Both the position numbers and the translations under genes were made by a program. The notes beneath the pieces are model-generated. The model ran no database searches. It saw nothing but the letters and a program-made list of their open reading frames with translations, and was not told the origin of the DNA. DNA of 64,000 bases from Patescibacteria group bacterium (GTDB lineage Bacteria; Patescibacteriota; Patescibacteriia; CAIXNZ01). Shown piece by piece: positions 28,646 to 61,002 of the stretch. The stretch covers positions 568 to 64,567 of the forward strand of contig JAQTMG010000001.1 of the NCBI GenBank assembly GCA_028714455.1. The letters run 5' to 3'. Each line of letters opens with the position of its first letter. Position 1 is the first letter of the stretch.

Positions 28646-28711
28646 GACTCCGTAGTTTCCGCCAGAGGCGGACCACGAATCGAGCTTTGCTCTGGTTCGT
28701 GGCAATGGATA
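28646..28711 (+). pseudogene. 5' tRNA-Arg fragment interrupted by a 45-bp double hairpin
   Basis: GACTCCGTAGTT|insert 28658-28702|CAATGGATA versus intact GTCCTCGTAGTTCAATGGATA. Confidence 0.8.
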
Positions 28712-28728
28712 TCAAAAAATTAACACCT

Positions 28729-28800
28729 GTCCTCGTAGTTCAATGGATAGAACAAGAGCCTTCTAAGCTCTGGATTGGGGTTCGATTCCTCACGGGGACA
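28729..28800 (+). tRNA. tRNA-Arg(TCT)
   Basis: Cloverleaf, AGAGC-CTTCTAA-GCTCT anticodon arm, GGTTCGATTCC. Confidence 0.93.
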
Positions 28801-28805
28801 TCAGT

Positions 28806-28857
28806 GGTTCTCGGCCAAAGGCTGATCCGCCTCTGGCGGAGATTCCTGGCGGGGTCA
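28806..28857 (+). pseudogene. 3' tRNA fragment interrupted in the T loop by a 30-bp double hairpin
   Basis: GGTTC|TCGGCCAAAGGCTGATCCGCCTCTGGCGGA|GATTCCTGGCGGGGTCA. Confidence 0.7.
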
Positions 28858-28906: not shown

Positions 28907-29251
28907 ATGTTTGATTTTGAAAAACTTGAAGTTTATAAAAAAGCCAAAAATATAAATGTTGAAATTTCGGAATTTTTAAAATCTGCAAATGTAGATATTT
29001 TCCTGAATAATCAGTTGAAAAGAGCTTCGTTAAGCATATTATTGAATATTGCGGAAGGTAGCGGTAGATCAACAAAAAGAGATAAAAGAAATTTTTTTGT
29101 CATTGCTCGCGGTTCGGTCTTTGAGTGCACTTCAATTTTTGATCTATTATTCACAGAGAAAGAAATTGAAATTGAAAAATATAATTATTTTTACAATCAG
29201 CTTGAAGAGATTTCAAAAATGCTATACGGTCTAATCAAAACTCATGAATAA
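28907..29251 (+). CDS. four-helix bundle protein (23S rRNA IVS-protein family, Avd-like fold)
   Basis: FDFEKLEVYKK...QLKRASLSILLNIAEGSGR...FFVIARGSVFEC. Confidence 0.92.
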   Translation: MFDFEKLEVYKKAKNINVEISEFLKSANVDIFLNNQLKRASLSILLNIAEGSGRSTKRDKRNFFVIARGSVFECTSIFDLLFTEKEIEIEKYNYFYNQLEEISKMLYGLIKTHE

Positions 29252-43835: not shown

Positions 43836-43986
43836 ACCGCCTTCGTCCCGAACTATATCTCGCTTTGCTCAATAAGTTCGGGATAAATCTAATGGTTAGC
43901 CATAGTCCGCCGAAGCACGAAGTGCGAAGGCGGAGACACCGCGCTTTTCCGCCAGAGGCGGACCCGCCTACGGCGGGCAATGCGGT
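43836..43986 (+). pseudogene. 5' part of tRNA-Glu split by three hairpin insertions
   Basis: Removing the inserts gives 42/44 identity to the first 44 nt of tRNA-Glu at 44258. Confidence 0.85.
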
Positions 43987-43995
43987 TAAATAAAT

Positions 43996-44250
43996 ATGTA
44001 TTATTTATATATTTTAAAAAGTTTAAAAGACGAAGGATATTATATTGGAATTACAGATAGCACCCTAGATCGACTCAAGGAACATAATCAGGGCAAGGTA
44101 AGATCGACAAAAAGTCGCAGACCATTTATCCTAAAATATTCTGAAAATTATAATACAAAAACTGAAGCAAGAGAAAGAGAGATTCAGCTGAAAAGAAACT
44201 GCAAAATCCGCAAAGAACTTTTACTAAAACTGAAATTTAGTGTTAAATAA
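43996..44250 (+). CDS. small GIY-YIG nuclease
   Basis: YYLYILKS...YYIGIT....RLKEHNQG....T..RRP......E......A..RE..LK. Confidence 0.93.
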   Translation: MYYLYILKSLKDEGYYIGITDSTLDRLKEHNQGKVRSTKSRRPFILKYSENYNTKTEAREREIQLKRNCKIRKELLLKLKFSVK

Positions 44251-44257
44251 ATATCAC

Positions 44258-44329
44258 GCCGCCATCGTCTAATGGTTAGGACACCGCGCTTTCAATGCGG
44301 TAATCGGGGTTCGATTCCCCGTGGCGGTA
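44258..44329 (+). tRNA. tRNA-Glu(TTC)
   Basis: Cloverleaf, CCGCG-CTTTCAA-TGCGG, GGTTCGATTCC. Confidence 0.95.
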
Positions 44330-44578
44330 CTTGTCCACAGTTGTCATTCTTTCAGTTGAATTTTTCCCCCGAAAAATTCTAACATCATTTGCCAGGCAGT
44401 ACTATTAAAAACCCCGCGACTATCTCGCGGGTTTTTTATTCTTGACAAAATTAAAAAATTTTGTTAAAATAATCTATCGTTCATTGATAAAAAAGACTGT
44501 TTAAACAGTTTTAATAAATATAAATAAAAGATTTTGTGATGGGTGCCAAAACGCATTCCTAGCCATAAGGAGGAACTG

Positions 44579-48925: not shown

Positions 48926-49100
48926 CTTGAATTTTTAAAAAAATTAAGCTAAAATAAAGAAAACTTACCATTGGTAAGTTTTTCTATTGCAACATTGGGT
49001 TCGGCTTGAAAGCCCAGCCTAAGTAAGCATCGCACTGATCGTATTTTTAGCATAATCTAATTTTCACGAAATGAAGCATGAATACATAAACTTGCAACTG

Positions 49101-49146
49101 GGCCACTTAGCCAAGCAGTAAGGCAAGGATCTGTCTGCCTACGCAA
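49101..49146 (+). pseudogene. 5' tRNA-Cys-like fragment
   Basis: GGCCACTTAGCCAAGCAGTAAGGCAAGGATCTG|TCTGCCTACG|CAA versus intact GGCCTGATAGCCAAGTGGTAAGGCGAGGGTCTGCAA. Confidence 0.7.
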
Positions 49147-49153
49147 TTTCTGC

Positions 49154-49225
49154 GGCCTGATAGCCAAGTGGTAAGGCGAGGGTCTGCAAAACCCTTATTC
49201 GTGGGTTCGATTCCCACTCAGGCCT
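49154..49225 (+). tRNA. tRNA-Cys(GCA)
   Basis: GGCCTGA/TCAGGCC stem, U discriminator, AGGGT-CTGCAAA-ACCCT. Confidence 0.95.
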
Positions 49226-49227
49226 AA

Positions 49228-49274
49228 TTCAATTCCTTGCCCAGCACCTCTTTGGTGCTAGGCCATAGTGGCCT
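49228..49274 (+). pseudogene. 3' tRNA fragment with hairpin insertion
   Basis: TTCAATTCC..[GCCCAGCACCTCTTTGGTGCTAGGC]..AGTGGCC-T; AGTGGCC pairs with GGCCACT at 49101. Confidence 0.65.
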
Positions 49275-49344
49275 CAAGAAAGCCCCGCGGTGCGGGGTTT
49301 TTTGATGGTAAATTAACCAAAAAAGTGATAAAATTAAGAAAAAC

Positions 49345-49989: not shown

Positions 49990-52757
49990 TGCCAAAAGCT
50001 AAACAAAAATTTATTCTCATTGACGGGAACGCCATTGTTCACCGCGCTTTTCACGCTCTGCCGCCTTTTAAAACTAAGGAAGGCGAATTAGTCAACGCGG
50101 TTTATGGTTTCACCACCATATTTTTAAAAGCCCTGCGCGAAATCAAACCGCAATACGCGGCTGTCACTTTTGATAAGGCTAAAAAAACCTTTCGCAACGA
50201 TTTATATCCCGAGTACAAAGCCACCCGAGTTAAGGCACCGCAGGAACTTTATGATCAGATTCCTAAAATAAAAGAACTGCTCAAACTTTTTAACATACCG
50301 ATTTATGAAATCGAGGGGTTTGAGGCTGACGATGTCATCGGCACCATCAGTCATCTCAAGGGCGTTGACCGGCCAGACATTAAAACCGTAATCGTCACCG
50401 GCGACCTGGACACGCTCCAGCTAGTTGATGACAACACCGAAGTTTTCTCGCTCAAGCGCGGCGTTTCAGACACAATTATCTATGACGAAAAAACCGTTTC
50501 CCAAAGATACGAAGGTTTAAAACCCGACCAACTTATTGATTTTAAAGCGCTCAAGGGCGATCCTTCTGACAATATCCCGGGGGTAAAAGGCATCGGCGAC
50601 AAAACTGCCATCACGCTTCTCAACGAATTTAAGACCCTGGAAAATCTTTACAAAAATATCAACAGCCAAAAAATAACGGAATCTGTCAGAAAAAAATTGA
50701 TTGAACACAAAGATGAGTCCTTTTTGAGTAAAAAATTGGCCACCATTGTACTGGATGTGCCCATCAAATTTGAATTGGAAGACGCAAAAATTAAAAGTTA
50801 TGACAAGCAGGCAGTCATGGAACTTTTTAGAAAGTTTGCTTTCACCAGTTTGATCAATAAATTACCTCCCGAACTCGGGCGACCCGAGGCTGTTATGGTG
50901 AGCTTAGTCGAACCATCAGCCGAGGATAAAATCGTAAAGTTCAATTATCGACTAATAAAAACCGAAGTAGAGCTTGATAAACTAATCGCCGATTTAAATA
51001 AACAAAAAATAATCGCTTTTGACACCGAAACAACGGGATTAGATCCTTTTAGTGTTCAGATTCTGGGCGTTAGCTTTTCCTGGAAGGGTGGCGAGGCTTA
51101 TTACGTACCCGTCGCCGAAATTAAGGGCGAAGGCTTGTTTGAAAATATAAAAATCAAAGAAGACTGGCTTAATAAATTAAAGCCTATTTTAGAAAATCAA
51201 AATATTAAAAAAATCGGCTTTAACGTCAAATACGATTCAGAAGTCATGAGTAATTATGGAATCGAGGCCAAACCTCTATCCTTTGACCCCATGGTCGCTG
51301 ATTATTTATTAAGTCCGGGCATCAGGTCGCACGGCATTGATAATCTCTCCTTCACCGAATTCGGCCATCAAAAAATATCTTTTGACCAGCTCACTGGCGA
51401 AGGCAAAAATAAAATTTCCATTACCCAGGTGCCCCTAGAAAAATTATCTTATTATTCTTGTGAAGACGCTGATTTCGCTTTTCGTCTCTACGAAGTTTTA
51501 GAAAGTAAGCTAAAAAAAGAAAAGCTGGCAGAACTGTTTGAAAAAATAGAAATGCCGCTAATTCCGGTTCTGATTGAAATGGAAAAAAACGGCGTCTTGA
51601 TTGATTCTGCCTATCTCAAAAAATTTGACAAAGAATTAAAAGAGAAAATAAATCAGGTCTCCAAAAAAATCCACAAACTGGCTGGCGATAAATTTAACAT
51701 CTCCTCACCCAGTCAGCTGAAAGAAATTCTGTTCACCAAGCTTCAAATCTCAACCCAGGGCATTGGCCGAACCAAGACTGGCTTTTCCACGGCGGCCGGC
51801 GAATTGGAAAAATTAAAAGGCAGGCACGAAATAATTGATTATATCTCCAAATATCGCGAGCTGACTAAACTGCAAACGACTTACGTTGATTCACTGCCGC
51901 AACTGGTCAATAAAAAAACCGGCCGCGTGCACACCAGTTTTAATCAGACAATTACTGCCACGGGCCGTTTATCTTCTTCAAATCCAAATCTGCAAAATAT
52001 TCCCATCAAAACTAAATTGGGCAACAAAGTGCGCCGCGCTTTTATCGCCGAGAAGGGCAATAAGATTCTCTCGGCCGATTATTCGCAAATCGAATTAAGA
52101 ATCGCGGCCTCCATCTCCGAAGATAAAAATATGATTGACGCTTTTAAACGCGGCGATGACATTCACACCATTACCGCGGCCAAGATAAATGACGTAAAGC
52201 CGGAAGAAGTAACCAAAGAAATGCGCAGCCGCGCCAAGGCCGTTAATTTTGGCGTGCTTTATGGTATGGGCTCGAATGGCCTAGCTCAAAGAACGGGCAT
52301 CTCTCGCGAACGCGCCCAGGATTTTATCGCTAAATATTTTCAGGCCTTTCCCAAAATCAGAGAATATGTAAATGAAACAAAAGATTTTGTTTATAAAAAT
52401 GGCTATGTGGAAACTTTATTTGGTCGCAAGCGCTATTTGCCTGATATTCATTCTGGCGTGCCCAATATCGCGGCCACGGCCGAGCGCATGGCCATCAACA
52501 TGCCTATCCAAGGCACGGCCGCTGACTTGCTTAAACTGGCCATGATAGAAATCCACAAAAAACTTGCAGATGTTTCACCCAGATCAAAATTGATTATTCA
52601 AGTTCACGATGAATTGGTCTTTGAAGTGCCTGAAAAAGAAATAAAAAAAGTCGCCGGCTTTGTCAAAGAGACCATGGAAAGCGTCCATAAATTCAAATGT
52701 CCAATTTTAGCAGAAGTGGAGGTTGGAGACAATTGGGGTGAATTGGAAAAAATATAA
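49989..52757 (+). CDS. polA: DNA polymerase I
   Basis: 5'-3' exo (LIDGN, EADDVIG, GDPSDNIPGV), DTETTG, ADYSQIELR, QVHDEL. Confidence 0.98.
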   Translation: MPKAKQKFILIDGNAIVHRAFHALPPFKTKEGELVNAVYGFTTIFLKALREIKPQYAAVTFDKAKKTFRNDLYPEYKATRVKAPQELYDQIPKIKELLKLFNIPIYEIEGFEADDVIGTISHLKGVDRPDIKTVIVTGDLDTLQLVDDNTEVFSLKRGVSDTIIYDEKTVSQRYEGLKPDQLIDFKALKGDPSDNIPGVKGIGDKTAITLLNEFKTLENLYKNINSQKITESVRKKLIEHKDESFLSKKLATIVLDVPIKFELEDAKIKSYDKQAVMELFRKFAFTSLINKLPPELGRPEAVMVSLVEPSAEDKIVKFNYRLIKTEVELDKLIADLNKQKIIAFDTETTGLDPFSVQILGVSFSWKGGEAYYVPVAEIKGEGLFENIKIKEDWLNKLKPILENQNIKKIGFNVKYDSEVMSNYGIEAKPLSFDPMVADYLLSPGIRSHGIDNLSFTEFGHQKISFDQLTGEGKNKISITQVPLEKLSYYSCEDADFAFRLYEVLESKLKKEKLAELFEKIEMPLIPVLIEMEKNGVLIDSAYLKKFDKELKEKINQVSKKIHKLAGDKFNISSPSQLKEILFTKLQISTQGIGRTKTGFSTAAGELEKLKGRHEIIDYISKYRELTKLQTTYVDSLPQLVNKKTGRVHTSFNQTITATGRLSSSNPNLQNIPIKTKLGNKVRRAFIAEKGNKILSADYSQIELRIAASISEDKNMIDAFKRGDDIHTITAAKINDVKPEEVTKEMRSRAKAVNFGVLYGMGSNGLAQRTGISRERAQDFIAKYFQAFPKIREYVNETKDFVYKNGYVETLFGRKRYLPDIHSGVPNIAATAERMAINMPIQGTAADLLKLAMIEIHKKLADVSPRSKLIIQVHDELVFEVPEKEIKKVAGFVKETMESVHKFKCPILAEVEVGDNWGELEKI

Positions 52758-60669: not shown

Positions 60670-60735
60670 GCCCTCGTAGTTTCCGCCAGAGGCGGACCAC
60701 GAATCGAGCTTTGCTCTGGTTCGTGGCAATGGATA
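60670..60735 (+). pseudogene. 5' tRNA-Arg fragment interrupted by the same 45-bp double hairpin as at 28658
   Basis: GCCCTCGTAGTT|insert 60682-60726|CAATGGATA. Confidence 0.8.
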
Positions 60736-60752
60736 TCAAAAAATTAACACCT

Positions 60753-60824
60753 GCCCTCGTAGTTCAATGGATAGAACAAGGGACTCCTAAGCCTTAGATG
60801 GTGGTTCGATTCCTCCCGAGGGCA
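60753..60824 (+). tRNA. tRNA-Arg(CCT)
   Basis: GCCCTCG/CGAGGGC stem, CTCCTAA loop, GGTTCGATTCC. Confidence 0.9.
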
Positions 60825-61002
60825 TTAAATTGTGTATAATTGGCCAAGATAAAAAAGGGGCCAGCCCAGATACAAGTTTGTGTGTAGGCCTAAGAAAATG
60901 GGCCTGCCCCGATAAAAGTTTATGTGAAAAATAGTTTTATGCATTGTTTGTATTGCGTACGAAAAAATACGCTTCAAACATTGAGCACACAGACTTTTAT
61001 CG

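Follow-up and report, generated by a model that had tools for sequence, protein, structure and literature searches.

A tRNA-Cys gene set within the displaced halves of another tRNA-Cys gene in a Patescibacteria genome, probably a decayed hairpin-ended replacement cassette

Integrase islands and prophages that insert at tRNA anticodon loops restore the gene with a partial copy borne by the element and leave one displaced piece behind. The Ssn nucleases are encoded in NTS-ssnA-NTS units, in which a small single-domain GIY-YIG gene lies between its own hairpin repeats in a competent host (Chenal et al. 2025, PMC11893778). SsnA, a protein of 94 aa, acts on ssDNA during transformation, when it binds its own hairpin repeat and cleaves immediately next to it; by cutting incoming ssDNA it lowers integration, and mobility of the unit is proposed, not shown (PMC11893778). 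The word "tRNA" is absent from the main text of that report. Phage T4 SegB is a free-standing GIY-YIG homing endonuclease that targets a tRNA-gene sequence and spreads with neighbouring tRNA genes; it cuts dsDNA at a 27-bp site built on a T-loop motif, and the region is swapped between phages (PMC2330249). The REP/REPIN sequences of RAYT systems are short tagged palindromes, often doubled, that leave the target unduplicated and have CA/CT junctions (PMC8266576, PMC3733652), and CGTC repeats lack a known transposase (PMC3733652). Finally, the rRNA genes of CPR bacteria carry non-intron insertions encoding GIY-YIG proteins, which are regarded as outside homing, with tRNA unmentioned in the accessible text (PMC11270868).

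The locus described here belongs to a Patescibacteria genome (G000) of 893 kb, assembled in 16 contigs and rated 100% complete; "the window" denotes the whole 64,000-nt stretch that was analysed. The most probable reading (about 0.65, judged from sequence) is that a tRNA-Cys gene has been split after G34 by a hairpin-ended cassette carrying a tRNA-Cys of another allele, likely moved by a GIY-YIG protein from elsewhere together with host recombination. The copy in the window is best read as a decayed, non-autonomous cassette and is probably no longer mobile. Such a cassette would work like a hybrid between a hairpin element of the Ssn or REP type and a tRNA-targeting nuclease of the SegB type, and it fails a defining feature of each family tested.

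ARAGORN finds 46 tRNAs in this genome, with a single tRNA-Cys among them. The intact tRNA-Cys(GCA), of the GGCCTGA allele and here read as the incoming replacement, occupies positions 49154-49225 (plus strand, as for all features of the locus) and scores 70.6 bits with Rfam. Its flanks are a 247-aa gene without Pfam match upstream, and a histidine phosphatase gene and a polA-like ORF downstream. A sigma-70-like match (TTGAAT-17-TAAAAT, 48927-48955) likely drives the locus: it is weak alone, with one found against 1.0 expected in shuffles, and a comparable promoter-to-tRNA spacing is present in family relatives. The AT-rich hairpin at 48960-48982 also lies 5' of tRNA-Cys in the family relatives and marks the orthologous locus. 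At the other end, a GC hairpin followed by a T run (49283-49303) is a likely terminator, listed by the scan on the minus strand.

Around the intact gene lie the remains of a second one. Positions 49101-49133 read GGCCACT-TAGCCAAGCAGTAAGGCAAGGATCTG and represent the 5' half (positions 1-34) of a displaced resident tRNA-Cys of the GGCCACT allele. Its far end, at 49263-49274, comprises the 3' strand of the T stem, the acceptor 3' strand AGTGGCC and the U discriminator. AGTGGCC-T (49267-49274) pairs with GGCCACT in 7/7 Watson-Crick pairs, three of them unlike those of the inner GGCCTGA/TCAGGCC stem, so the first-pass annotation was right both about the intact gene and about a perfect outer acceptor stem differing from the inner one. 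The match is, on sequence counts, not a product of chance: AGTGGCCT has 11 occurrences in the genome on both strands (P ~4e-4 for one within 60 nt) and CCATAGTGGCC has one.

The insertion starts directly after G34 with the cassette left arm TCTGCCTACGCAA (49134-49146), followed by a short leader up to 49153. This arm shares 9-11 of 13 bases with all nine arms compared, which come from six related loci (L331, L333, L334, L335, L232 and L260), and its CAA is therefore not the anticodon; TCTGCCTACG, initially parsed as a 10-nt insert before CAA within the anticodon, belongs to the arm. Behind the inner gene, AATT (49226-49229) is likely its trailer and ends at a putative deletion junction. By comparison with the complete nests G005, G004, G013 and L232, this deletion would have taken away the right arm together with the stretch of the old gene that runs from C35 to the T loop. 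Within TTCAATTCC, only CAATTC (49230-49235) matches the old T loop, where relatives read GGGTG-CAA, and it represents the T-loop remnant of the displaced tRNA. An empty 27-nt hairpin repeat with a CTTG tag and a CCCAGCACC stem then sits inside the dead T stem (49236-49262). Its hairpin CCCAGCACC-TCTTT-GGTGCTAGG is located at 49240-49262, downstream of the gene as first described, and hairpins of the same family also lie in this genome's relics of tRNA-Asn and tRNA-Gln. The window copy of the cassette retains the left arm alone and contains no ORF.

Everything from C35 to the T loop is missing from the outer gene, about 22 nt including two anticodon bases, so that the outer tRNA cannot be rebuilt from this locus; the relic also carries a G-to-A change at 49129 that breaks an anticodon-stem pair. 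The bases quoted in the first-pass annotation and its acceptor match thus stand, and its parsing of the anticodon region and its reconstructable outer tRNA do not. A group I or II tRNA intron and a split tRNA were rejected as explanations because C35 to the T loop is missing and Rfam finds no intron family in the locus at its curated thresholds. Positions 49122-49129, in the outer 5' relic, are complementary over 8 bp to 49234-49241, at the junction of T loop and hairpin. The change at 49129 improves this pairing, which is probably a coincidence with the CTTG tag.

The history of the locus can be read from its relatives. The outer 5' piece is identical at 31/33 positions to the intact tRNA-Cys of G001 and G002 and at 26/33 to the inner tRNA; for the outer 3' piece (49263-49274 with 49230-49236) the values are 17/18 and 13/18. 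Both of these same-genus genomes have an intact GGCCACT-type tRNA-Cys at the same locus and no shell; a gene of this type in related taxa was the check named at the outset, and together with the P value given above it places the outer pairing beyond chance. The inner tRNA is 58/72 identical to the G001 gene and 71/72 identical to the stand-alone gene of G009, a member of another genus, and relic layers of G012 and G013 reproduce its 5' half exactly. These identities come from direct comparison; MAFFT put the intact relatives onto the inner gene and served only to place L232. Since the outer halves resemble the intact gene of the relatives more than they resemble the inner tRNA, the shell is very probably the ancestral resident and the inner gene the newcomer, an anatomy and history in which our confidence is high. 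A decayed inverted-repeat element of about 94 nt, of a kind found at tRNA 5' ends, occupies 49012-49101 and is missing in G001 and G002. It adjoins the outer relic and not the inner gene, in keeping with the relic being the former working gene. Elements of this kind, with long terminal inverted repeats, sit at the first bases of tRNA genes or relics at about a dozen other tRNA 5' ends of G000, and their end motif has 23 matches, none of them more than 230 nt from a tRNA 5' end.

The same locus was compared in 13 family genomes, a 14th without a match to the marker protein falling outside this count. Six have single genes, of four alleles, five have two-sided nests and two have a 3' relic only (G005 is left out of the host tree because of a mis-picked protein). 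The deepest nests are those of G004, with two full layers, and G013, with two 5' layers. G005 has a complete nest with the same outer and inner allele types as the window, and L232 has, at the same locus, the same outer allele and a different inner one. The complete nests (G005, G004, G012, G013 and L232) begin with the old 5' half, which ends at G34; left arm, tRNA-Cys and right arm follow, and the old gene is taken up again at CAAAA, in most of them after a linker and a second hairpin. In this loop form, to which the window's locus belongs, the tRNA lies in a hairpin loop between TG and CA, and the junction bases TG and CAAAA are neither lost nor duplicated. The arms of complete relatives are terminal inverted repeats; over 17 loci, two of which were mis-parsed, their duplexes average -20.5 kcal/mol, and those of mismatched arms -12.9 kcal/mol.

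Relics are not confined to tRNA-Cys. A cognate relic that beats every non-cognate flank accompanies 17 of the 46 tRNA genes of the genome (12 with a 5' relic, 9 with a 3' relic, 4 with both), and a swapped-side control gives 0. In this alignment-based test the Cys 5' relic is caught (score 32 against 19 for the best non-cognate), and the Cys 3' relic is missed (13 against 31) because the hairpin splits it. Clear nests occur at Ser(TGA), Ile(GAT), Phe, Tyr and the doubly nested Ser(GGA), and one hairpin family places 16 of its 26 copies within the 2.7% of the genome near tRNAs. The initial argument that recurrence points to a general mechanism is thereby strengthened, as it is by the Cys nests of relatives and the two collection scans described below.

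Several other loci of the genome have their own architecture. In the doubly nested tRNA-Ser(GGA) (G000 C2 112340-112700), a full outer gene, a decayed middle one and an intact inner one each have their own inverted arms. Two tRNA-Arg loci of the window (28646-28857 and 60670-60825) share an identical 79-nt block (28651-28729 = 60675-60753) of hairpins, D-loop relic and spacer; their 5' acceptors differ. At Arg(TCT), the D loop holds the left hairpin and the T loop the right one, so the old gene has had its middle part exchanged. Window positions 43837-44330 hold a cassette of the nuclease form: a tRNA-Glu 5' relic with three hairpin insertions, an 84-aa GIY-YIG gene (43996-44250) and an intact tRNA-Glu, in that order. 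A tRNA-Pro(TGG) followed by a tRNA-Gly(TCC) occurs twice on the contig (window 4903-5075; G000 C1 72230-72388), with identical Pro genes and different Gly alleles. Genes for four-helix-bundle proteins (23S_rRNA_IVP) are found at window 28907-29251 and in nine copies in G000, several near tRNA relics and 7-bp repeats.

Split tRNA-Cys loci were sought more widely with a pattern for Cys 5' halves that lack CA directly behind them, which gave 53 GTDB loci and at least 120 metagenome stretches, 80 of the latter being examined. Because the patterns fix the junction at G34, the sameness of the site is partly given by construction and the exact resumption at CAAAA alone is independent. The first tRNA within 450 nt is tRNA-Cys in 35 of the 53 GTDB loci and 56 of the 80 metagenome loci. 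Another tRNA comes first once per set: a fully dead relic before tRNA-Leu, and a Cys gene, one nucleotide short, that ARAGORN overlooked. The remaining hits are intact other tRNAs (2 GTDB, 11 metagenome) or loci without a tRNA (15 and 12; chance hits, contig ends and other remnants). Deduplication left 80 distinct loci with tRNA-Cys next, in sets that overlap with each other and with the relatives above, so that kin are not independent. In the 27 distinct loci in which the outer gene differs from the inner one and a 3' relic is detected, the better partner of this relic is the outer acceptor in 20 and the inner one in 6, with a tie in 1. Two carriers, L033 and L069, are labelled Omnitrophota, so the cassette may cross phyla. 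Viral contigs gave 4 matches to the loose Cys pattern and 0 to the strict relic pattern. A pattern for loop-type cassettes at tRNAs of other isotypes, built without reference to the outer relic and too narrow to be informative, gave 0 matches in 401 genomes; within this genome, the four best-scoring clamped tRNAs all have outside relics, and only two of them score above the null maximum.

A GIY-YIG gene is present in 33 of the 80 distinct loci (a fragment in L070) and absent from 47. The order in this nuclease form is double hairpin, CAAAA, an ORF of about 82 codons for the GIY-YIG protein, tRNA, TCTG, often the same double hairpin again, and the old 3' half; the double hairpins are direct copies, each set within TCTG and CAAAA, and their tags are CCTG or CTTG. 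The inserts span 20-350 nt and, read by eye, hold at most one ORF each, the GIY-YIG gene of about 250 nt; no integrase was seen in them. One near-identical cassette lies in four resident backgrounds (L208, L245, perhaps with its left part alone, L256 and L283). Several relics resemble crossovers of incoming and resident tRNA halves: L224/L234 and L256/L283 are mosaics, the latter two sharing an extra insert and differing in their self-complementary acceptor and T stems. At L245, a deletion joined the inner to the outer 3' half, producing a hybrid tRNA-Cys with an acceptor pairing that relies on G-U wobbles. The identical 79-nt block of the window's two Arg loci is a further sign of recombination. 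L208 and L256 already diverge 8 nt or less from the junction.

The proteins of related cassettes are 81-84 aa long and consist of PF01541 alone. Y5, Y16, G18, R26 and E62 are invariant in 14 proteins, and Y5, Y16 and E62 match Y6, Y17 and E64 of SsnA (PMC11893778). The best PDB matches are UPF0213 and Slx1, and the NCBIfam search gave only sub-threshold matches to TIGR01453. Phylum and class searches returned 127 GIY-YIG hits in 120 loci (30 of these chosen by profile similarity), 70 of them within 350 nt of a tRNA or tmRNA, and the relic-nuclease-tRNA order is frequent for other isotypes too. In a quick tree of 82 columns, a clade of 14 rows (SH-aLRT 98) is entirely Cys-linked, with four rows found irrespective of their neighbours, and a second clade of 9 rows contains 5 Cys. 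A profile from 10 Cys-cassette proteins, run on the 127 hits chosen irrespective of neighbours, has its top five hits, all above 100 bits, adjoining tRNA-Cys; in metagenome loci selected by DNA, 24 of 34 hits exceed 100 bits. These scores in independent loci confirm, at the level of sequence, the link of the nuclease clade to Cys. Isotype-specific clades beyond Cys were rejected: without the Cys rows the clustering is gone, the tree needing 40 changes where shuffles average 42.3 and 57 of 500 fall as low. Linkage in itself is no proof of specificity, and the nuclease could be cargo travelling with the tRNA.

Like SsnA, the cassette proteins are small, single-domain and hairpin-flanked, with the same catalytic tyrosines and glutamate. 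Unlike the Ssn repeats, those of the cassette are direct copies embedded in tRNA halves; CGTC/GTCA-tagged SRM hairpins, by our own loose motif, accompany 1 of the 61 genes linked to tRNAs, compared with 11 of the other 62, and proteins linked to tRNAs are not part of the clade that has GTCA-tagged hairpins. In a weak tree that bears on membership of the Ssn clade cd10448, they lie apart from a mostly tRNA-free clade of 45 rows. Two GIY-YIG genes far from tRNAs (G000 C2 161750-162050 and C7 32700-33050) have inward-facing GTCA-tagged hairpins in the Ssn/SRM layout. In contrast to the SegB system, described in the accessible text (PMC2330249) without hairpin ends or nesting, the cassettes are hairpin-ended and nested in their target gene, and their proteins of about 82 aa have the catalytic domain only. 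Nor is the donor allele resistant, as in SegB-type homing: the inner tRNA keeps TCTG and CAAAA, in 16 of 33 nuclease loci it has the same anticodon stem as the outer tRNA, and inner genes are re-invaded, so that a simple homing model does not explain the nests. Co-conversion of the SegB type would fit the mosaics L224/L234 and L256/L283; the difference between L208 and L256 so close to the junction also bears on it. A recoded, nuclease-immune rescue tRNA was rejected, a stem pyrimidine at 28-29 being found in 16 outer against 21 inner of 46 in an unbiased metagenome set; the idea had come from the GTDB set, whose pattern forced purine-rich outer stems.

Terminal inverted repeats, as in MITEs, occur in complete relatives; unlike MITEs, which have a target-site duplication of 2-10 bp (PMC11602168), the loop-type inserts lie between TG and CA without a repeat. 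With integrase islands the cassette has in common that it inserts into a tRNA gene and that element-borne sequence restores function, and it differs in bringing a whole gene and in displacing both halves. The 23S rRNA gene of this genome (G000 C5 ~50600-50900, minus strand) contains a GIY-YIG ORF between CCCGCACC / TCCCGCACC inverted arms of the same family as those around nested tRNAs, and the rRNA insertions and the tRNA cassettes may thus be one class of element.

The events at the locus would have run as follows. The resident allele, now the outer halves, was replaced by a different allele found in other genera of the family. As comparison shows, a complete cassette sits precisely between TG and CAAAA, and its longer versions hold a GIY-YIG gene and a tRNA between two direct double-hairpin copies. 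We infer that the nuclease moves the cassette: it would cut ssDNA at or beside the hairpins or the anticodon loop, as related Ssn enzymes do, and the cassette would enter the resident gene, probably from competence-imported DNA, with the relic halves as homology arms. The presence of ComEC in the genome and the crossover-like relics favour a cut in ssDNA at the hairpin or anticodon arm followed by recombination through the relic halves. GIY-YIG enzymes cut DNA and are not known to join it. As the target is essential and single-copy, insertion would kill it, and only cassettes carrying a tRNA of the same kind would persist. The new tRNA would take over promoter and terminator and become a fresh target, giving rise to Russian dolls. 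Relics then decay through point changes, empty hairpin insertions and deletions, as in the window.

The strongest rival, which we consider unlikely, holds that ordinary recombination duplicates or imports tRNAs, that empty hairpins strike the spare copies, that the nests spread solely through homologous recombination of conserved tRNA halves and that the GIY-YIG gene is a passenger. Relic loops of all three kinds, D, anticodon and T, do hold empty hairpins (three in L039, a whole relic), inner and outer genes are often of the same allele, and the mosaics L224/L234 and L256/L283, as well as L245, look like crossovers. The genome also has no Cys-clade GIY-YIG protein, the best profile score being 72.8 bits, which speaks against dedicated machinery. 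This rival does not account for tRNAs that lie in a hairpin loop while the old gene picks up exactly at C35, for one cassette found in several resident alleles, for the TCTG-hairpin-CAAAA context kept at both ends of nuclease-bearing copies or, with a mere passenger, for the conserved catalytic residues.

A second rival is rather improbable. In it, the cassette is a miniature element of the REP kind with the GIY-YIG gene as cargo, and a Y1 transposase (HUH, RAYT-type) mobilises it in trans by single-strand peel-and-paste. The unduplicated target, the 4-nt tag beside the hairpin, the five Y1 matches in the genome and the insertion next to CA or CT, the dinucleotides cut by TnpA-REP (PMC8266576), all agree with it. 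However, three of the five Y1 loci were inspected, and none is flanked by tRNA-type hairpins or lies near tRNAs; the tags are CCTG or CTTG, not GTAG; and GIY-YIG is the sole ORF family detected in Cys cassettes by a scan aimed at GIY-YIG. The strong bias towards tRNA genes and the carriage of whole genes in the hairpin loop are likewise unlike REP/RAYT elements. A reverse transcriptase-like ORF of 451 aa (PF00078) lies at G000 C3 ~83860-85216 on the minus strand, and no link between it and the cassette was found.

A functional outer shell, either a spliced second tRNA or a selected RNA clamp aiding the processing of the inner tRNA, is very unlikely. A predicted fold does close the outer acceptor and the 8-bp helix 49122-49129/49234-49241, with a z-score of -4.1 to which the inner tRNA contributes. 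Beyond the missing bases and the intron-free Rfam result, however, the relics of relatives contain stem-breaking changes and further insertions, and 6 of 13 family genomes are shell-free. Chance similarity, or chimeric assembly of the tRNA-Cys genes of two strains in a genome of 16 contigs, is scarcely credible given the low P value of the acceptor match alone, the same allele types in the complete nest of G005, the same outer allele in L232 and a junction that holds a cassette arm foreign to both simple alleles.

The cassette in the window is apparently part of a widespread, undescribed group of tRNA-replacement cassettes; a literature search that covered openly available main texts found no account of nested or replacement tRNA-in-tRNA arrangements. 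Tentatively, at somewhat short of even odds, these cassettes would form a new class: transposase-free and hairpin-ended, present in ultra-small bacteria and driven by GIY-YIG nucleases of about 82 residues with tRNA-type-specific clades, they would enter the loops of essential tRNA genes, and of rRNA, inactivate the gene they enter and install their own complete tRNA, so that alleles are replaced repeatedly. The value of the window copy is that both alleles and the uninvaded state are known. An open question, by what means tagged palindromic repeats move when they have no known transposase, could be tested directly on such cassettes, with the targeted bond, the element ends and a candidate enzyme all defined. 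If the reading is true, an essential single-copy gene in genomes below 1 Mb is repeatedly turned over by a selfish element that pays with a full replacement, on a scale of four stand-alone alleles and nests of up to two layers at one locus in 13 related genomes. In such bacteria, tRNA genes would then be poor lineage markers, and tRNA fragments would not be prophage attachment scars.
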